From an uncultured Nitrospiraceae bacterium (GTDB lineage Bacteria; Nitrospirota; Thermodesulfovibrionia; Thermodesulfovibrionales; Dissulfurispiraceae): a stretch of DNA of 64,000 nt. The stretch lies in the NCBI GenBank assembly GCA_963727805.1, contig CAVSHF010000003.1, positions 2,048,001 to 2,112,000 of the forward strand, given 5' to 3'. This document shows positions 26,226 to 35,014 of this stretch, piece after piece. Numbering within the stretch: position 1 is the stretch's first letter; each line of letters starts with the position of its first letter. The notes below the pieces were generated by a model. That model did no database searches and was not told the DNA's origin. It worked only from the letters and a program-made list of their open reading frames with translations. The translations under genes were made by a program, and so were the position numbers.

Positions 26226-28988
26226 ATGTCGACCAGAGAATTAATCATCGAAGGTGCCCGGCAAAATAACCTCAAGAATCTGAACCTGCGGCTGCCTCAC
26301 AACACGGTTATCGCCATAACGGGCGTTTCGGGTTCGGGGAAGTCTTCTCTCGCTTTCGATACGATCTTTGCGGAAGGCCAGTGGAGGTTCATAGAATCGC
26401 TCTCAACCTATGCGCGCCTTTTTCTCGAAAAGCTCGACCGCCCAGATGTCGACAGCATACGCAATATACGGCCTGCGATCGCCCTCGAACAGAAAAACCC
26501 GGTTAGAGGATCGCGCTCAACCGTCGGGACTCTTACCGAACTCTACGATCTTTTCCGAGTCCTCTATGCCAGGGTCGCGATCCCCTACTGCCCAAAATGT
26601 GAAAAAGAAATACGCAAATGGGATGCCTCTCAAGTGGTTGCCGAATTGCTCGAACATTACAGGGACGATCGGGCACTCATCACCTTTGAGACCGAAGAAT
26701 CTCCTGAATCTCTCGCCAGCCGTGGCTTTCACCGTCTGCTCATAAACGGCGAAGTCAAAGAAATCGATGATTTAAAATCCGAGCCTTTACCTTTGAACTC
26801 TTTATGTGTTGTCCTCGACAGACTTGTGATTCGTGACGAGGCGCGGCTTTCCGACTCTGTCGAAACAGCGTGGTGGGAAGGCAAAGAGAGCATCTCAATT
26901 GTGATCGTCCGGACTGATGCACGTGGAGCACCTACCATGAAGCCACTCGTGTTTTCTTCAAAAAATGTCTGCGACGATTGCGGCATCGTTGTTCCCGAGC
27001 CATCGCCCATTCTATTTTCCTTCAACCACCCCCTCTGCGCGTGTCCGGAGTGCAAGGGGTTCGGGAACATTCTCAAGTATGATGAAGATTTAATCGTGCC
27101 AGACAAGCACCGCTCTCTTGCAGAAGGTGCTATTGAATTATGGGAGAGACCTGGCTACCACTGGTGGAAATTACAGCTAATAAAAGGTGCAAAGAAGGCC
27201 GGGATAGATGTTGCAAAGCCTTATTATCAGCTCAGCGACTCCGAGCGTGAGTTCGTCTTTAAAGGTAACGGGAAATTTAATGGCGTTAACAACTTTTTCG
27301 AAGAGCTCGAATCTAGGCGTTACAAACTTCACGTGCGGGTGCTTCTGAGCAGGTTCAGAACTCCCGTTGCCTGCCCAAAATGCCACGGCAAAAGGCTTTG
27401 TGAGGACGCCCTTGCTTACAAGATAGAGGGACTTGATATCGCCGATGTTTCCCTGAAACCAATTGCACATCTCTCGAAATGGGTTGCCGGCATCGAGCTC
27501 TCCCCGATGCAGCGCGACATTGCAAAAGAAGTCTTACGGCAGATTACGCTAAAGCTTGATTTTCTCATGAAGGTAGGGGTCGACTATCTTGCACCGGCTC
27601 GACAGGCCAAGACTCTTTCAGGCGGTGAATACCAACGGGTGAATCTCTCAAATCAGCTCGCCTCAGCCCTCACTGGAACTCTCTACGTTCTTGATGAACC
27701 CACCATAGGGCTCCATCCACGTGATACAAGGAGGATTGCAGAGATAATGTGCCGGCTCTCTTCTCAGGGGAATACCATCATCGTAGTCGAGCATGATAGG
27801 GATATTATTTCTTCGAGCGATTGGGTCGTCGAACTCGGCCCTGGCGGGGGCCACCTCGGCGGTGATATTGTTTTTTCAGGACCAATGGAGGAATTCCTAC
27901 AGGCAGACACGCTCACCGCAAAGTATCTGAGGGGCGAAAGTCCGAAAGAGAGGTCCGGGTTTTATGGGCTTAAGAAACAAGCGACCCTCTCGCCAAACAG
28001 ATTCATCACTCTGTATGGTGCTTCGGGAAACAATCTTAAAGACATTACAGTCATGTTCCCGATTGAATCCCTAACTGTAGTGTCCGGGGTGTCCGGTTCG
28101 GGAAAGAGCAGTTTGATTGTTGAGACGTTATTCAATGCCGTTGCCCGTCATTTAAGGGTAGATTCCGACCCGTCCCTCACATTTCAGCGCATCGAGGGCC
28201 TCGAACAAATAAAAGGCGTGAGGCTCATCGACCAGAGTCCAATCGGCAGGACACCGAGATCAAATCCTCTCACCTACCTCAAGATATTCGAGCCGATCAG
28301 GAAGCTTTTTGCCCAGCAGCCTGAAGCCAGGGCGCACGGTTACACTCCGGGTTTTTTTTCCTTTAATGTACCGGGTGGCAGATGCGAGACCTGCAAAGGC
28401 GAAGGATACCAGAAGATGGAGATGTATTTCTTCGAAGATATCTTCGTAAAGTGTGAGGACTGTAAGGGCAGGAGATACAAGGAAGATACTCTGCGTGTAA
28501 CATACAACGGGAAAAACATCCACGATGTGCTCGGCTTGACTGTTGACGAGGCATACGAGTTCTTCTCCGCAATTCCCGAAATATATTCCCGGATGGAACT
28601 CCTGCAGAGCATCGGTCTCGGTTACCTCGTACTCGGACAGCCCGCTACTACCCTCTCTGGAGGTGAAGCCCAGAGGCTCAAGATCTGCGCCGAATTGTCG
28701 CACACCTCTTTGCGCGGAGTGCTCTATATCCTGGACGAGCCCACAGTAGGGCTACACCATAACGATGTACTTATGCTCGCTGGGATTATACGCAGGCTGG
28801 TCGTTTCTGGAAACACCGTGGTTATTATCGAGCATAATCTTGATATTATAGAAAGAGCGGACTGGGTCATTGACCTTGGTCCGGAGGGAGGAGACGAAGG
28901 CGGTTTCGTTGTCTTCGAAGGAACGCCCGAAGCCATGAAGGATGCTCCTCTCTCACATACAGGACGGTATCTTAAGGAGTACTCATAA
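26226..28988 (+). CDS. uvrA: Excinuclease ABC subunit A (divergent paralogue)
   Basis: Two GVSGSGKSS, two LSGGE, two LDEPT motifs; CxxC zinc fingers. Confidence 0.93.
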   Translation: MSTRELIIEGARQNNLKNLNLRLPHNTVIAITGVSGSGKSSLAFDTIFAEGQWRFIESLSTYARLFLEKLDRPDVDSIRNIRPAIALEQKNPVRGSRSTVGTLTELYDLFRVLYARVAIPYCPKCEKEIRKWDASQVVAELLEHYRDDRALITFETEESPESLASRGFHRLLINGEVKEIDDLKSEPLPLNSLCVVLDRLVIRDEARLSDSVETAWWEGKESISIVIVRTDARGAPTMKPLVFSSKNVCDDCGIVVPEPSPILFSFNHPLCACPECKGFGNILKYDEDLIVPDKHRSLAEGAIELWERPGYHWWKLQLIKGAKKAGIDVAKPYYQLSDSEREFVFKGNGKFNGVNNFFEELESRRYKLHVRVLLSRFRTPVACPKCHGKRLCEDALAYKIEGLDIADVSLKPIAHLSKWVAGIELSPMQRDIAKEVLRQITLKLDFLMKVGVDYLAPARQAKTLSGGEYQRVNLSNQLASALTGTLYVLDEPTIGLHPRDTRRIAEIMCRLSSQGNTIIVVEHDRDIISSSDWVVELGPGGGHLGGDIVFSGPMEEFLQADTLTAKYLRGESPKERSGFYGLKKQATLSPNRFITLYGASGNNLKDITVMFPIESLTVVSGVSGSGKSSLIVETLFNAVARHLRVDSDPSLTFQRIEGLEQIKGVRLIDQSPIGRTPRSNPLTYLKIFEPIRKLFAQQPEARAHGYTPGFFSFNVPGGRCETCKGEGYQKMEMYFFEDIFVKCEDCKGRRYKEDTLRVTYNGKNIHDVLGLTVDEAYEFFSAIPEIYSRMELLQSIGLGYLVLGQPATTLSGGEAQRLKICAELSHTSLRGVLYILDEPTVGLHHNDVLMLAGIIRRLVVSGNTVVIIEHNLDIIERADWVIDLGPEGGDEGGFVVFEGTPEAMKDAPLSHTGRYLKEYS

Positions 28989-28991
28989 GAT

Positions 28992-29384
28992 ATGCTATTG
29001 AGAAAACTTACCCCTGCACTGACCGTAGATGATATAAAAAGCACGATTGCATTTTATCAGGACATGCTCGGCTTTGAAACCATCCTTACTGTTCCCACTA
29101 AAGACCAGATCGACTGGGCACTCATGAAATGCGGCGATATAGAGATCATGTTCCATGCGAAGGTCAACCACACCACCACGAAGCACCATATTGAAGGCAC
29201 TCTCACTTTTCATTTCGAAGGTGAAGGAGTGAAGGAGTTATATGAAGCTGTGAAGAACAAGGTCCGCATAGAGCGGCATCTCTATCCCACTTTTTATGGG
29301 ACGAATGAATTCTCGATGGAAGATTGCAATGGCTGCATACTCGTCTTTGCGGAGAAGCTCAAACAAAATGAGACCGTTGACTAG
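28992..29384 (+). CDS. VOC/glyoxalase/bleomycin-resistance family protein
   Basis: LTVDDIKSTIAFYQDMLGF, TFYGTNEFSMEDCNG. Confidence 0.88.
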   Translation: MLLRKLTPALTVDDIKSTIAFYQDMLGFETILTVPTKDQIDWALMKCGDIEIMFHAKVNHTTTKHHIEGTLTFHFEGEGVKELYEAVKNKVRIERHLYPTFYGTNEFSMEDCNGCILVFAEKLKQNETVD

Positions 29385-30376
29385 CTTTCTGTCTTTTTGA
29401 AGACCTCGTCATAAAATCCCTTGTCCACGCTGAACCCGATTTCGAGTGAGAGAAGATTCGAAGGAACTCGCGGTAATTCCCTTATTTTCACCATGTCCTT
29501 CTCGGTAGTAATTAGAAAGTCGACCCCCAGCTTCATCCCGCAGTCCTCAAGGTCTGTCATGTCTGCTTGAACATAGCGGTAATGGTCGCTATAACTCTTA
29601 AATTTAACAATTGTGCAAGCGAGTGCCGACAGCGTTTTTCTGAAAGAGACTGGATTGGCAATGCCACAGAAAGCAAAGATATTCTTGTCTTTCATCAGAT
29701 CCATGTCCACATTGCCGTCGGGACCCCGCAACCCTGTGACTTCATGCGAAGCGAAATAGATAGGCGCTTTCTTATTAATCAATTTAATCTCACTTGCCAA
29801 GGCCTCATTTCTCACTTTTGTGATAACTATTATATCCGCATCCTTTAACTCACTGACGGGCCCGCGCAATCGCCCGACAGGCAACAGCTTTCGGTTGCCG
29901 AAAGGATCAAGACCATCGACCAAGACGACATCGACATCCCTGCTCAACTGCCAGTGCTGAAAGCCGTCATCGAGGATAAAAAGAAGTGGCAGCCCATCAT
30001 TGCCAAGATGCCGGGCAGCAAAGATGCCCCCCTGATAACGGTCCGCCGTTTTTACAACAGGCACATCTTTCAATCTTCCGGCCATTACCGCCGGTTCATC
30101 TCCGACATCTTCAACGGAGAGGCCTGCGCCGCTCCCCGCATACACAAAGCAGGGTCCTTTTGCCTTGCCCCTGTAACCCCTCGTCAGAATCACTGGTCTG
30201 TAGCCTCTTTTCTTCGCCTCTTCAGCCAAGGCGATGGCAGCAGGTGTTTTGCCGGTACCTCCGACCGTAATGTTGCCGACACTGATCACCTTATGAGGAA
30301 GCCTTTTCTGCTTACGGCGGGAACGCCATTTTTTGAATGAATAGCCTAAATAGTAGAACAATGGAATTGGCGTCAT
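29381..30376 (-). CDS. lpxK: Tetraacyldisaccharide 4'-kinase
   Basis: SVGNITVGGTGKTP, GDEP, LDDGFQH, TTEKD. Confidence 0.95.
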   Translation of the reverse strand: MTPIPLFYYLGYSFKKWRSRRKQKRLPHKVISVGNITVGGTGKTPAAIALAEEAKKRGYRPVILTRGYRGKAKGPCFVYAGSGAGLSVEDVGDEPAVMAGRLKDVPVVKTADRYQGGIFAARHLGNDGLPLLFILDDGFQHWQLSRDVDVVLVDGLDPFGNRKLLPVGRLRGPVSELKDADIIVITKVRNEALASEIKLINKKAPIYFASHEVTGLRGPDGNVDMDLMKDKNIFAFCGIANPVSFRKTLSALACTIVKFKSYSDHYRYVQADMTDLEDCGMKLGVDFLITTEKDMVKIRELPRVPSNLLSLEIGFSVDKGFYDEVFKKTES

Positions 30377-31785
30377 GGGTATGCATCAAGGAGGTAGTCA
30401 GCTAGATTGATCTTGTATTTATTGTAATCGAGTGTTTTCTTGACAGTCCTACGATAGTTTCCGTCAGGCCCTTTTTCTGAGAGGTCTATGAGGCTGTTTT
30501 TGACTTTTTTACCATTGTGATCAACGAGCAGCACGATCACCGGTCTTTCGGGATAATCCGAGTTGCCCCGGTATACAACTCCCAGTTCACGTGTATCGAG
30601 CACTACAAGCGTACCAATGGGATAGACCCCCATCATCTTGATGAATATTTTCAGCAGAACCGGGTCGACATGCTTGCCCGCATTGTCGATAAGGATCTGA
30701 AGTGCCACTTCAGGCGATTTCGGGACGCGAGAATATACCCTTGCCGAGGTCATTGCATCAAACCGGTCAGCAATCGTTACTATGTTTGAATAGAGATTGG
30801 TCTGCCCCGGTCGTTTTACTGCGGGATAACCCGACCCGTCGAAGTTAAGATGATGTTCGTATGAGACAACGGCACTCCTTATCGTTACCTGGTCAATTTT
30901 CATGGTATTCAAGATCGTTTTGACTCCCTCAACGGGATGGAGCTTCATTGTCTCCCATTCTTCATCGGTAAAAGGTGTTGCCTTATTCAGAATTTCATCC
31001 GGTATTAGGACCTTTCCGATGTCGTGAAGAAAGGCGGCGATCCCCAGTTCTGATAGTCTTTTTTTATTGAGTCCTAATTTCATGCCGAGGGCGAGAGAAA
31101 GAATACTTACGTTGACTGAATGGTGAAAAGTATATTCATCATAGTCCTTTATCGCCGTCATACTTATCATCATCTGCTCTTCCTGCAGCATGAGATCAAT
31201 CAGTGTATTGACGACCAGCTTAGCCTTCTTTATTTCAATACTCTCTTTTGCTTTTGCCTTACCGGTGACTGCCTTGAACTGGTATATAGCATTGAAATAG
31301 GTCTTTCTCATAACCTGTCGCTTATTGAGGATATTATCTTGCCGCGCATGCTTCAAAGTCCCGATAGCAATCGATTCGATAGTCTCAATTCCTCCCATCA
31401 GAGTGACATAAGGTGAATCGGATGAAAGGCATGAAAAGAAAGCCTTTATAAAGTCCTGCTGGTCACGACGAGAAATCCTGTCAGTATAAGTTATACTGCC
31501 CAGCCCCCGTTTCCGAAATTCGCTGATAAGAAAATCAAAGTTGAGATAGTACTGCACAGCATACCTCACCCTTGCCTGATTGAGATAGAAATATTCGCCC
31601 AGAAGTTCAAGCGTAAGCGTCTTTTCGGAGAGCAGCACCAGATTGACGGCCTCGATAAACGTATCGACAGCCTTGATGACAACCTCATTGTCGATACTGT
31701 ACGTTTGGCCTATCCTGAGCAAAATGGCCAGCCTGTTCACAATATCTTTTGCGTTCTTAATAGCAGAAACGTCTGGTTTATTCAT
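30373..31785 (-). CDS. HD-GYP phosphodiesterase with uncharacterised N-terminal domain
   Basis: DEYTFHHSVNV, LHDIGK, HPVEG, EHHLNFDGSGYP, ADRFDAMTSARVY. Confidence 0.92.
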   Translation of the reverse strand: MNKPDVSAIKNAKDIVNRLAILLRIGQTYSIDNEVVIKAVDTFIEAVNLVLLSEKTLTLELLGEYFYLNQARVRYAVQYYLNFDFLISEFRKRGLGSITYTDRISRRDQQDFIKAFFSCLSSDSPYVTLMGGIETIESIAIGTLKHARQDNILNKRQVMRKTYFNAIYQFKAVTGKAKAKESIEIKKAKLVVNTLIDLMLQEEQMMISMTAIKDYDEYTFHHSVNVSILSLALGMKLGLNKKRLSELGIAAFLHDIGKVLIPDEILNKATPFTDEEWETMKLHPVEGVKTILNTMKIDQVTIRSAVVSYEHHLNFDGSGYPAVKRPGQTNLYSNIVTIADRFDAMTSARVYSRVPKSPEVALQILIDNAGKHVDPVLLKIFIKMMGVYPIGTLVVLDTRELGVVYRGNSDYPERPVIVLLVDHNGKKVKNSLIDLSEKGPDGNYRRTVKKTLDYNKYKINLADYLLDAYP

Positions 31786-33583
31786 GTTTGATCATGTGCA
31801 GGGCTGCAGCAACGTGCTCCCGCAGGAGAGGCTCGGAAGCGTTGCCCAGCTTCTCAAGAAGTGGAAGCGCTTTACTGCTGCCGGCCAATCCGAGATAATG
31901 TGCGGCACATGCCCTAGATTCAATTCTCTTTCTGCTGCTGAAGATATTTTTTTTCTTCAATAAACTGATCATATATTCGTCCACTTCACCATCGTTTAAT
32001 AGTGCCAGGGCTTCGTAGAAAGCTTTCTTTTCCTTAAAGTCCCTTTCCTCAAACACTTTTTCTTTGATTTTAGCTAAGATCGCATCCACGGAGAAAAGCC
32101 TGGCACCCGAACTCTCTTTTGCAATAGTCCCCATGCCCGCTATTGCCGATAGCCTCACTGTTGAATCGCTGTCGTCAAAAGAATCTTTCAGCGCTTGGAG
32201 GGCCTTGACGCTCCTGAAATTGGTCAGAGCCTTCACTACCTCTAGCCTCACTCGAGGATGATCGTGTCTCAACGTCTTAAGAATATCGTCCAAAACAGCG
32301 TTATCGCCAATGTTCCTGAGCACATATACGATGTTCCTCACAACGTACCATGTGGGGTCTTTGAGCCGCTCGACGAGGGCATCCATATTCTCTTTCCCGA
32401 CATGGATAAGTACATTGTTGACCATACGCCGAGCAGATATACTCTGGAGCTGCTGAAGGAGAGACATCAAGAGCTGAACGGCTCCCTTGCCGAGATACTG
32501 TGCATATTCAGTCAATTCTTCCTCATTGATGTCTTTCGCTGAATCCATCATGCGGGCCAGTTGTTCCAGGACTGCGCGAGAGCCACAAAAGGCGAGAACA
32601 TTGTCGGCATGCTCATGTATATTGGACATACCACGAAGGCCCTCATAATTTTCAGATGATATTTCCCGTATCCCCCGGAGTGCCATCAGAACAGACCCGA
32701 AATTATTCCCTCTGAGTGCGTGCATGATCAGGTCTTCAAACGATTTGGCTAGCCCACCAGCCTCTGCGCTGTTACAGGACGCCGCGATTATCTCAATCAG
32801 AATCTCCACGAGCCTGCCATTATTCTCAGTGGAGTCTTTCGCTATTTCGGCCACAATGAATCCTCTCTCGTCAGGCGTTAGCTCTTTGACCGCGGGCGAT
32901 GAGATCTCCTCCCTGTTGATAGCCTCCTGATAGGCACTCAGGAGCTTGCTGTCTTCCCTCTCATCCATCAACCAGATCCCGTCCTCTCCGTCTTCGGCAG
33001 ACATATCCCCTTGCGCTTTGATCCCGGATAGAAACATAGCACCAGTTCCTACTCCCTCCTCTGTCAAGGACTCTGCTACCTTCATTGCTCCTTCGGCATC
33101 CCCTCTGCCCGGTTCACCTCCCAAACTGCTCTGCAGGTCATCACCCTCAAGGAAAGCGATTTCGTCGATGGTAAGCTTGATTTTTTCGAGACCCTTCTCC
33201 CAGACTGAAGAAATGAAGTCACCATTGCTGTCGTCCCGGTCAAAATCCATCCCGGTCAGTTTGAGAAATTCTTCGAGTTCGTTCCTCGGCAGTCCTTCTT
33301 TGAAAGTCAAATCCCTGATACCTTCTTTAAAGAAAAAAAGGGCGAAATTATCCATCTTCCCTGAACTCTGATATACCTGTTCAGAATCAACGAGCATCTC
33401 CGAAGGCGTTATGCGAATGACAAGATCCCCGTATGATAATAGATATTTTTGAACGATAGAAAATGTGTCCTCTATGGCATTTCGATAAAGAATATTATTG
33501 GCCGGGTATATCTGCAGCAGTTTCTTAGCTTTCAAAGCTGCCTTGATAAAGTTTCTAGCAAGATCTATCCGATTATTGTCCAT
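31778..33583 (-). CDS. HEAT-repeat protein with uncharacterised N-terminal domain
   Basis: DPTWYVVRNIVYVL, HPRVRLEVVKAL, DSTVRLSAI repeats; acidic linker; overlaps the HD-GYP start. Confidence 0.85.
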   Translation of the reverse strand: MDNNRIDLARNFIKAALKAKKLLQIYPANNILYRNAIEDTFSIVQKYLLSYGDLVIRITPSEMLVDSEQVYQSSGKMDNFALFFFKEGIRDLTFKEGLPRNELEEFLKLTGMDFDRDDSNGDFISSVWEKGLEKIKLTIDEIAFLEGDDLQSSLGGEPGRGDAEGAMKVAESLTEEGVGTGAMFLSGIKAQGDMSAEDGEDGIWLMDEREDSKLLSAYQEAINREEISSPAVKELTPDERGFIVAEIAKDSTENNGRLVEILIEIIAASCNSAEAGGLAKSFEDLIMHALRGNNFGSVLMALRGIREISSENYEGLRGMSNIHEHADNVLAFCGSRAVLEQLARMMDSAKDINEEELTEYAQYLGKGAVQLLMSLLQQLQSISARRMVNNVLIHVGKENMDALVERLKDPTWYVVRNIVYVLRNIGDNAVLDDILKTLRHDHPRVRLEVVKALTNFRSVKALQALKDSFDDSDSTVRLSAIAGMGTIAKESSGARLFSVDAILAKIKEKVFEERDFKEKKAFYEALALLNDGEVDEYMISLLKKKNIFSSRKRIESRACAAHYLGLAGSSKALPLLEKLGNASEPLLREHVAAALHMIKHE

Positions 33584-33718: not shown

Positions 33719-35014
33719 CTAGAGATATTTTTCTATTATCCGCAAGGCTTTTTGGGTAGCACCAGCTTTCTTTTCATATAATTCTCTCGCTGCATCGCCC
33801 ATGCTATGCATCACCTTGGGGGAACTGAGCATGTCCTTCACTGTCTTGTAAAGATCAATATTATCGGTTTGGATAGCCGCGCCGTTTCGATAAAATTCAT
33901 CGATAAAGGGGAAATTCTCCATATGCGGCCCGCAGATGATCGCCTTTCCCCAAAAAGCGGGTTCAAGAGGGTTTTGTCCCCCGTGCCCGATAAAGCTCCC
34001 CCCCATAATGGCTATGTCCGCCGCACCATAGATCAATGCAAGTTCACCCATCACGTCAAGGATGATAACCAGTCCATAAGAGCCAGGATCGGAAATTAAA
34101 AAGTCTTGTGCCTCCGCTCTTTCATCTTTTCGCTCTTCAGCACCGTCCCCCTTAATTTCCGACCGCTTGAGATAGTTGATCCCACGCCTTTTGACAAGGT
34201 CCTCGACTTCTCTGAACCGTTCCGGATGCCGGGGTGCGACTATGAGGGTAAGGCCAGGATAATCCGCAAGCAGTCGGACAAATGCATCCATGACAATATC
34301 TTCTTCGGTGCGATGCGTACTGCCCGCTACGATAACCGGTCGACTCATTCGCCGCGTCCATTGCGGCGCAATAGTCGCAGGACTTGTGTCGAATTTAAAA
34401 TTACCGATCACCCGCACGCTCTTTTCATCGGCCCCGAGAGTTATAATCCTCCGTGCATATTCTTCATCCTGCATGCAGAAAAAAGAGATTTCACGCAACA
34501 CTTTCTCAAAAAAGAAACGCAGTTTCCGGTACCCTTTCCCCGACTTATCCGATAACCTCCCGTTCATCAACAGCACCGGGGTACCATGCCTGCTGAAAAA
34601 ACGGATTATAGTGGGCCAGAGTTCAGTCTCCATGATGATAAACAACGAGGGTTTGACAGCGCTATATGCATTAGCAACCGCAAAGGTGATGTCGAAAGGG
34701 ATGTAGATAATCCTTGCGAGTTCTCCGACCTTTTCCCGGGCGACCTTCTGGCCTGTATCGGTAACTGTTGAAAGTACTATCTCTCGGTCGGGATACGATG
34801 CTTTAAGCCCTTTCAATAAAGGGATGGATGCAACTACTTCACCAACTGAAACTGCGTGTATCCAGATTGGCCTATTAGTACTTGAACTGTAGGGTACAAA
34901 ACCGAATCTCTCCCTGAGCCAGCGACTCCTCAATTCCTTTGGGCGCTTAAAATACTGGTAAGGGAGGATACACAGCAGGACTAATCCATATAGTATGTTA
35001 TAAAAAAAATACAT
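33719..35014 (-). CDS. waaA: Kdo transferase
   Basis: WIHAVSVGE, ETELWP, AGSTH, APRHPERF, GGQNPLEPA. Confidence 0.96.
   Translation of the reverse strand: MYFFYNILYGLVLLCILPYQYFKRPKELRSRWLRERFGFVPYSSSTNRPIWIHAVSVGEVVASIPLLKGLKASYPDREIVLSTVTDTGQKVAREKVGELARIIYIPFDITFAVANAYSAVKPSLFIIMETELWPTIIRFFSRHGTPVLLMNGRLSDKSGKGYRKLRFFFEKVLREISFFCMQDEEYARRIITLGADEKSVRVIGNFKFDTSPATIAPQWTRRMSRPVIVAGSTHRTEEDIVMDAFVRLLADYPGLTLIVAPRHPERFREVEDLVKRRGINYLKRSEIKGDGAEERKDERAEAQDFLISDPGSYGLVIILDVMGELALIYGAADIAIMGGSFIGHGGQNPLEPAFWGKAIICGPHMENFPFIDEFYRNGAAIQTDNIDLYKTVKDMLSSPKVMHSMGDAARELYEKKAGATQKALRIIEKYL

Follow-up and report, generated by a model that had tools for sequence, protein, structure and literature searches.

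In a 64,000-nucleotide (nt) stretch of the genome of an uncultured Nitrospiraceae bacterium (assembly GCA_963727805.1, contig CAVSHF010000003.1; the whole stretch is called the window below), two overlapping genes encode a HEAT-repeat protein and an HD-GYP phosphodiesterase, and this gene pair is a conserved cassette, the linkage holding in both directions. The N-termini of the two proteins are homologous and share a real domain of about 140 residues, referred to here as the N-domain. The evidence leans, by a modest degree, towards the HEAT protein being a dedicated partner subunit which docks on the catalytic domain of the enzyme and determines how active it is or where in the cell it acts. 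The catalytic domain itself is known, being an ordinary HD-GYP domain; a literature search at title and abstract level yielded neither the uncatalogued domain nor the near-obligate HEAT partner gene, the fusions or the predicted docking. Likewise, no title or abstract on a HEAT/HD-GYP pair appeared in the literature searched by keyword, with most subscription papers lying outside its coverage.

Linkage and fusion of the two genes

Open reading frames (ORFs) confirmed the two overlapping genes of the first-pass annotation, which had been made from the letters of the window. Named relatives are assigned to Dissulfurispiraceae, Thermodesulfovibrionales and Nitrospirae, as would be expected of a genome that most likely belongs to Nitrospirota. 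The stop of the HEAT gene overlaps the start of the HD-GYP gene by 8 nt (Table 1), an arrangement through which the genes would be translationally coupled, and such tight coupling suggests 1:1 synthesis of both proteins. The pair is not confined to this locus. A sample from the own phylum combined 40 loci, spread over the families with N-domain matches, with the second such pair of this genome; 38 of these 41 loci carry an intact HEAT gene followed by an intact HD-GYP gene, and at the remaining three the partner occupies the same place, being split (L035), truncated (L042) or devoid of the N-domain (L034). A wider sample was obtained by scanning a genome collection with a degenerate motif for the HEAT-type domain, which picks only motif-bearing HEAT-type copies and thus gives a sample, not a census. 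At least 119 matches resulted, 80 of them with flanks, five of which repeat loci of the phylum sample. Among the matches listed, the partner was seen at 77 of the 80 loci, the other three being cut by contig ends; at 75 loci an N-domain plus HD-GYP follows directly downstream (some frameshifted or cut), and at two the N-domain of the partner alone is visible at a contig end. The matches listed bear about ten phylum labels, among them Nitrospirota, Myxococcota, Thermodesulfobacteriota, Gemmatimonadota, Eisenbacteria, Zixibacteria, Acidobacteriota, Methylomirabilota, Ignavibacteria and Dormiibacterota. In the reverse direction, a HEAT gene lies upstream at all five loci chosen on an enzyme-type match alone (L212-L216); the same holds for 26 other enzyme loci, but these had been chosen as visible pairs. 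The adjacency survey accordingly upholds the two genes as conserved neighbours.

The genes flanking the pair differ by lineage (87 of 158 listed neighbours scanned, a few of them substituted). Across much of the own order, tatC is found immediately upstream of the pair (L035-L040), another lineage-specific flank, and in two lineages a GGDEF gene stands directly upstream on the same strand (L045:6724-7869, L061:6749-8956). In one subclass, a small HEAT-only gene of about 190 amino acids (aa) converges on the HD-GYP gene (L204, L205, L241, L242, L245, L246, L248-L251) and is possibly a third component. The N-domain was detected in 201 of 301 genomes of Nitrospirota, in merely 7 of 23 other genomes of the own family Dissulfurispiraceae, and in 41 of 71 and 45 of 91 genomes around a Myxococcota-labelled and a Geobacter-labelled locus, respectively. 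No match to the pair was obtained among 72,556 plasmid records. The second copy in the genome (C3:1007880-1011093, corresponding to L001:6878-10088) encodes proteins 50% and 65% identical to those of the window; a DUF3391-HD-GYP gene is located 4 kb from it.

A quick IQ-TREE analysis was run on the 176 of 351 N-domains left after de-replication at 50%, and 86 of its 173 inner branches are unresolved. Still, the main sets of enzyme-type copies (68 rows, SH-aLRT support 97) and HEAT-type copies (56 rows, 96) separate, and since each group spans several phyla, the duplication of the domain is old; no order of evolutionary events is claimed from this tree.

Natural fusions make up 10 of the best 150 N-domain representatives (P0058, P0060, P0065, P0066, P0090, P0091, P0092, P0109, P0110, P0122), with N-domain, HEAT region, second N-domain and HD domain following each other in a single chain. 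Several fusion clusters have more than one member, and one is Deltaproteobacteria-named (ten proteins looked up, seven of them fusions). Fusion probably occurred more than once, because P0122 branches apart from the others on the quick tree, giving two separate supported branches of fusions, and because a kinase-led fusion with a decayed HD region exists (L196). The metal ligands are kept in nine of the ten fusions, and GYP and R349 are lost. Two further candidates, P0130 and P0200, resemble artefacts of read-through across the junction of the genes and are excluded from the count.

The unit of N-domain and HEAT region occurs in other architectures as well. Proteins of 1,180-1,420 aa combine GGDEF, a STAND-like AAA domain, one or two N-domains and HEAT repeats (P0156, P0168), the same build being found at L226:2030-6271, L227:2186-5953 and L228:570-4109; the unit thus stands attached to predicted diguanylate cyclases, too. 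At loci of myxobacterial type, a Ser/Thr kinase is fused in front of the unit (L196:4593-9551, L197:2020-9044), with DUF4388 behind the decayed HD partner. In addition, two proteins of 740-750 aa (L219:3728-5950, L220:1623-3875) start with the shared domain and are without any Pfam match.

The shared N-terminal domain

The first-pass annotation had aligned about 115 residues at the start of both proteins by eye, and this relationship was substantiated by profile comparison. As single sequences the two N-termini are weakly similar (22% over 88 aa, E 0.002). With hhalign, profiles built from close homologues matched at 88% (E 3e-6), and profiles of 39 diverse rows each matched at 98.2% (E 4.6e-14) over 135 columns. 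As a control, the HEAT N-domain profile was searched against 13,094 ORFs of the genome and found only four proteins at E up to 1, namely the HEAT protein and its HD-GYP partner from each of the two copies of the pair. Separate AlphaFold2 models, calculated from different alignments, show an identical order of elements in both N-domains: two long helices, three strands, a helix, a strand, two helices and a strand. The mean predicted local distance difference test (pLDDT) score is 91.5 for the HEAT-type model (predicted template modelling score 0.86) and 87.6 for the enzyme model. The residue pattern noted at first was retained in part: Y/H at position 26 (29 in the enzyme), N/H at 30 (33), G88 (96) and F106 (112) are kept in 140 pairs, and the Q and "LLS" letters vary among homologues.

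The domain also stayed without a name, as first suspected. A Pfam scan of 78 N-domain members gave scattered chance matches in at most 3 of the 78, and an atlas search led to unnamed clusters (score 0.91). DUF3391 (PF11871) was considered and rejected, as its atlas score of 0.76 is at chance level and it had no hit in the 78 N-domains; neither did the window enzyme match it at E up to 0.1 with Pfam, a positive control elsewhere in the genome reaching E 2.7e-18. A single PDB sequence match, to an engineered cytochrome (37 positions, E 1.4e-4), was rejected as partial. Foldseek found no match of the N-domain in the PDB at E up to 0.001, and in VIA-align the best Z was 4.4 (79 aligned residues, root-mean-square deviation (rmsd) 5.5), with none of 48,161 chains at Z of 5 or above. 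The absent fold match does not prove a new fold. The family comprises 9,409 clusters (representatives at 50% identity, E up to 0.001). Among the HD-GYP-associated domains described in the main text of Galperin and Chou (10.1101/2021.11.05.467447) it does not appear; according to the same source, many HD-GYP N-termini remain undefined.

Predicted docking, catalysis and rival explanations

The full-length HEAT protein was modelled with enzyme residues 4-395 as a 1:1 complex in three runs, accompanied by three controls. The interface score ipSAE reached 0.75, 0.73 and 0.75, against 0.00 in all three controls; at least 44% of contacts recur between runs, and the pLDDT of the partners does not fall below 76. 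Of 157 solved complexes, 116 attain the pass mark applied, as do 2 of 215 mismatched pairs; these figures are only roughly applicable to models with own alignments. The confident interface comprises residues 122-139 and 232-288 of the HEAT protein and residues 186-193, 237-245, 285-309, 321-332 and 376-383 of the enzyme; none of the 36 confidently contacting enzyme residues falls in the enzyme N-domain. I261, L262 and I265 belong to the predicted face of the HEAT protein, and V288, L292, V306 and Y309 to that of the enzyme. No HEAT/HD-GYP complex was found in the PDB in the searches made with the enzyme.

A focused covariation analysis was based on 101 pairs not given to the complex model. For the 25 best-predicted contacts the mean coupling z is 0.49 (permuted partners, p 0.01; sliding control, p 0.0098), and none of 12 runs with swapped relatives was as high, which lends modest support to the predicted docking. 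Covariation over the whole proteins was underpowered and gave nothing for or against any interface. The surface itself is peculiar to the family. Large hydrophobic residues occupy a mean of 5.0 of seven contact positions in 130 members with the C-terminal tail and 5.6 of seven in 10 members without it, compared with 2.1 of seven in 16 other HD-GYP domains of the genome, in most of which one position is gapped. Similarly, five basic positions score 4.15 of five in the family and 1.56 of five in the same 16 domains. The HEAT helix 122-129 is conserved and acidic in the family, and the enzyme contacts include basic residues 186-193 and 241-242; we infer that the acidic helix (122-131) meets these basic residues.

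According to the proposed mechanism, HEAT helices 232-288 would pack, beside the GYP loop, on the hydrophobic face that the helices with H283 and H311/H312 show specifically in this family, and clamping of these catalytic helices could tune enzyme activity or fix its site of action. Basic-aromatic loops are known for a tethering role at membrane surfaces. Near the C-terminus of the HEAT protein, residues 543-553 contain at least one aromatic and at least three basic residues in 122 of 140 homologues, and a sliding control showed this character to be concentrated there; judged from this composition, the loop may hold the complex at the inner-membrane surface. With the HEAT/PBS-lyase-repeat proteins NblB, CpcE/F and CpeY the HEAT protein has HEAT_2 and HEAT_PBS repeats in common, but it scores 19-29 bits in NCBIfam models whose cut-offs are 220-600, so that the generic repeat alone is shared; an assignment as phycobilin lyase or NblB was rejected, as the equivalog cut-offs are not reached.

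On the enzyme side, the intact metal site seen in the first-pass annotation was confirmed by alignment with PmGH and 39 family rows: all seven ligands (H222, H254, D255, H283, H311, H312, D340) are present and are invariant or nearly so in these rows. Further active-site residues are G319-Y320-P321, Y218 and R349-x-Y351-S352-R353. In 119 of 130 family rows (four of them duplicate loci) the ligands are intact. Of the HHExh(D/N)GxGYP motif, HH...DGSGYP is present with GYP intact, and Leu313 replaces the Glu after HH. The nearest known enzymes are HD-GYP c-di-GMP (cyclic diguanosine monophosphate) phosphodiesterases (PmGH, PDB 4MCW/4MDZ; PA4781, 4R8Z; V-cGAP3, 5Z7C; DvhD, 9RBZ); the catalytic domain matches PmGH with phmmer at E 1.3e-27 over aa 203-385, and Foldseek gave E 7e-8. 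The window enzyme keeps HD, HH, GYP and the seven ligands, and differs by Tyr for E185, Ser at the K317 position and Leu after HH. Moreover, its N-domain is none of GAF, REC or PAS, and no such sensor domain was found by Pfam in either protein of the pair, as first noted. An always-linked separate HEAT partner is not described for the HD-GYP class in the main text of Galperin and Chou (10.1101/2021.11.05.467447). In the Bd1817 family (Bd1817, PA4108, VC2497) HD-GYP is likewise preceded by long helices and by an N-terminal cytoplasmic domain whose function is unknown, and Foldseek matched the window enzyme to 3TMC/3TM8 (E 5e-7 to 7e-7, whole-chain rmsd 13 A); still, the window enzyme lacks the DUF3391 that defines this family and hence falls outside it. 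DUF3391 is stated to be almost confined to HD-GYP proteins (10.1101/2021.11.05.467447), whereas the shared domain also heads HEAT proteins.

The residue Y218 aligns with E185 of PmGH (phmmer alignment) and is Tyr in 104 of 130 family rows, which places the enzyme outside the trinuclear subfamily with its Glu or Asp at this position. Enzymes without this Glu are described as binuclear and as mostly stopping at pGpG, with exceptions (10.1101/2021.11.05.467447). Because of Y218, the enzyme probably converts c-di-GMP to pGpG, as its main product, as a binuclear phosphodiesterase. In the Rxx(K/R) guanine-binding motif R349 is kept, S352 aligns with K317, R353 is next to it and the loop is one residue longer. 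The K317-equivalent position varies among the 130 rows (S 28, G 22, R 20, N 15, K 10, Q 9), 94 of which have R or K at position 353. RxxQ, as in PmxA, or RxxN, as in Bd2325, is reported to shift specificity to cyclic GMP-AMP (cGAMP) (10.1101/600031); the window enzyme reads RVYS and has neither motif, and N or Q occurs at this position in 24 of 130 rows. The RxxS enzyme HdgA still cleaves c-di-GMP, according to a personal communication in 10.1101/2021.11.05.467447. The genome has 19 GGDEF-like ORFs, and c-di-GMP is the likeliest substrate.

Several observations weigh against a HEAT subunit docking on an active phosphodiesterase. Only 74-77 of the 207-272 contacts in the model are confident, and the model is a 1:1 complex without enzyme residues 396-470. 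When all 140 rows were used, one of 12 swap runs matched the observed covariation, and the whole interface block has a mean z of 0.004, covariation being underpowered to a degree at which the top intra-chain pairs are not interpretable. Leu313 in place of the Glu, together with S352 in place of the lysine reading guanine, at a position that is variable in the family, leaves substrate and activity less certain. The metal ligands are missing in 11 of 130 partner domains, most of these cases coming from myxobacterial loci. Moreover, N-domain/HEAT proteins without an HD-GYP neighbour were found at 7 of 20 loci of one set as well as at L202 (near a contig end), L217 and L218; because such stand-alone genes exist and the unit is also fused to GGDEF or kinase domains, HD-GYP binding cannot be its sole role. 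Decayed HD-GYP partners still stand beside a HEAT gene at L193, L195, L207, L209, L210, L197, L112 and L132, which suggests a non-catalytic role for them.

The main rival had been put forward in the first-pass annotation, namely that the paralogous N-domains heterodimerise and in this way recruit the HEAT scaffold to the enzyme; this might happen only in a 2:2 complex. That both partners almost always keep the domain, in two old clades, and that tandem copies occur in single chains (P0057, P0156, P0168, L202, L226, L230), as for a self-pairing domain, would agree with it. Nevertheless, the best run of the 1:1 model contains no confident domain-domain contact, the domain-by-domain block has no coupling excess (mean z -0.02, at low power), and L034 keeps the coupled HD-GYP gene after the enzyme lost its N-domain. 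Thus, the physical partnership proposed at first gains from adjacency, the ten fusions and a model passing its controls, and the paralogous domains as its interface do not; we consider heterodimerisation unlikely. The shared domain would rather serve signal input or oligomerisation than form the main heterodimer interface.

Still less probable is a HEAT protein which covers the hydrophobic face as inhibitor or as a chaperone for folding, stability or metal loading, without any signal input. The predicted interface is indeed a hydrophobic patch on the metal-ligand helices, and the tight gene coupling points to equal synthesis. Nevertheless, loss of metal ligands or GYP from the enzyme leaves both the pair and the architecture with the patch in place, and the fusions of the N-domain/HEAT unit to GGDEF-AAA and Ser/Thr kinase domains point to signalling. 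It is quite improbable that both proteins merely share a pathway and do not stably bind each other, with the HEAT protein as output scaffold or effector and the linkage reflecting co-regulation of duplicated genes. Stand-alone N-domain/HEAT genes exist and operon linkage alone is no sign of binding, but repeated fusion, a complex model that passes beside three zero controls and family-specific surface features argue for contact. Docking of the HEAT protein on the catalytic domain is therefore preferred.

The window locus and the meaning of the cassette

The pair lies between waaA and lpxK, and the start of lpxK overlaps the HD-GYP stop by 4 nt, as ORF coordinates confirmed. That the cassette links signalling by cyclic dinucleotides to the making of lipid A is very improbable, for although this overlap and the same gene order in L033, of the same genus, speak for it, waaA or lpxK is near only 1 of 41 and, among the matches listed, 0 of 80 other pair loci, none of 29 other lpxK loci of the order has HD-GYP upstream (waaA abuts lpxK directly in 12), the second copy of the pair lies elsewhere in the genome and flanks differ between lineages. 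Since these flanks were seen in this genus alone and other lpxK loci are devoid of HD-GYP, the cassette was probably inserted between waaA and lpxK at genus level. The tie to lpxK, first read as a feature of the module, is thus a local one: lpxK is likely co-transcribed with the pair at this locus, and lipid A synthesis is not part of the module. A sigma-70-like site in the gap between waaA and the HEAT gene (33677-33648) is not above chance (10 sites found, 8.3 +/- 3.4 expected). In five wetland metatranscriptomes, 6-12% of the words of this region were recovered, and contigs from relatives span portions of both genes, one of 151 nt running across the HEAT/HD-GYP junction; as such contigs reveal neither the strand nor a single transcript, they were set aside as evidence. 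A UvrA-like ABC ATPase of 920 aa (window 26226-28988) converges on lpxK, adjoined by a glyoxalase-family gene (28992-29384) whose stop overlaps that of lpxK.

Table 1. Positions of the HEAT/HD-GYP cassette, its parts and its flanking genes in the window
Feature	Position	Strand	Basis
waaA, upstream flank, outside the module	33719..35014	-	domain and neighbourhood comparison
HEAT-repeat partner protein, 601 aa (P0001)	31778..33583	-	ORF; Pfam HEAT_2 E 1.3e-21
Shared N-terminal domain, HEAT-type copy (aa 1-140); helix 122-131 among predicted contacts	33164..33583	-	hhalign, AlphaFold2 pLDDT 91.5
Acidic linker of variable length (aa 141-230; 24% D+E; 5-209 aa in 140 homologues)	32894..33163	-	
Helices aa 232-288, predicted to dock on the HD-GYP catalytic domain	32720..32890	-	complex model, covariation
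HEAT/PBS-lyase-type repeats (aa about 332-601)	31781..32590	-	Pfam
Basic-aromatic loop (aa 543-553), possible membrane-surface anchor	31925..31957	-	140 homologues
8-nt overlap, HEAT stop and HD-GYP start	31778..31785	-	ORF coordinates
HD-GYP phosphodiesterase, 470 aa (P0002)	30373..31785	-	ORF; Pfam HD_5 E 1.9e-24; PmGH match E 1.3e-27
Shared N-terminal domain, enzyme-type copy (aa about 8-145)	31351..31764	-	hhalign, AlphaFold2
Two long helices (aa 155-211) with family-conserved basic patch (186-190)	31153..31323	-	
HD-GYP catalytic domain (aa about 210-386)	30628..31158	-	alignment to family and PmGH
C-terminal tail rich in beta structure (aa 387-470), missing from some members of the family	30376..30627	-	
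lpxK, downstream flank, outside the module, 4-nt overlap with HD-GYP	29381..30376	-	domain and neighbourhood comparison

HD-GYP enzymes are assumed to be controlled by sensor domains within their own chain, and few of them are known to work through a partner (Galperin and Chou, 10.1101/2021.11.05.467447). Regulation or localisation by a HEAT subunit dedicated to the catalytic domain would accordingly be new for these enzymes, on which many anaerobes and deltaproteobacteria chiefly rely to hydrolyse c-di-GMP. It is conceivable, though on balance doubtful, that the shared domain is a new fold marking an unrecognised, ancient signalling chassis of many environmental phyla, in which an N-domain/HEAT subunit tethered to the membrane would clamp the catalytic helices of a cyclic-dinucleotide phosphodiesterase and so gate it in trans, this unit being found fused to GGDEF-AAA cyclases and Ser/Thr kinases as well. 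Independently of this, a family of 9,409 clusters without a Pfam model or a clear solved fold has been brought to light, carried by two thirds of the searched Nitrospirota genomes and by about half of those in samples of two other phyla, and predictions at residue level are given. Under the doubtful reading as an ancient chassis, the HD-GYP enzymes of this family would be two-subunit switches receiving their input via a separate HEAT protein, and the inactive versions in myxobacteria would have been kept for interaction only.

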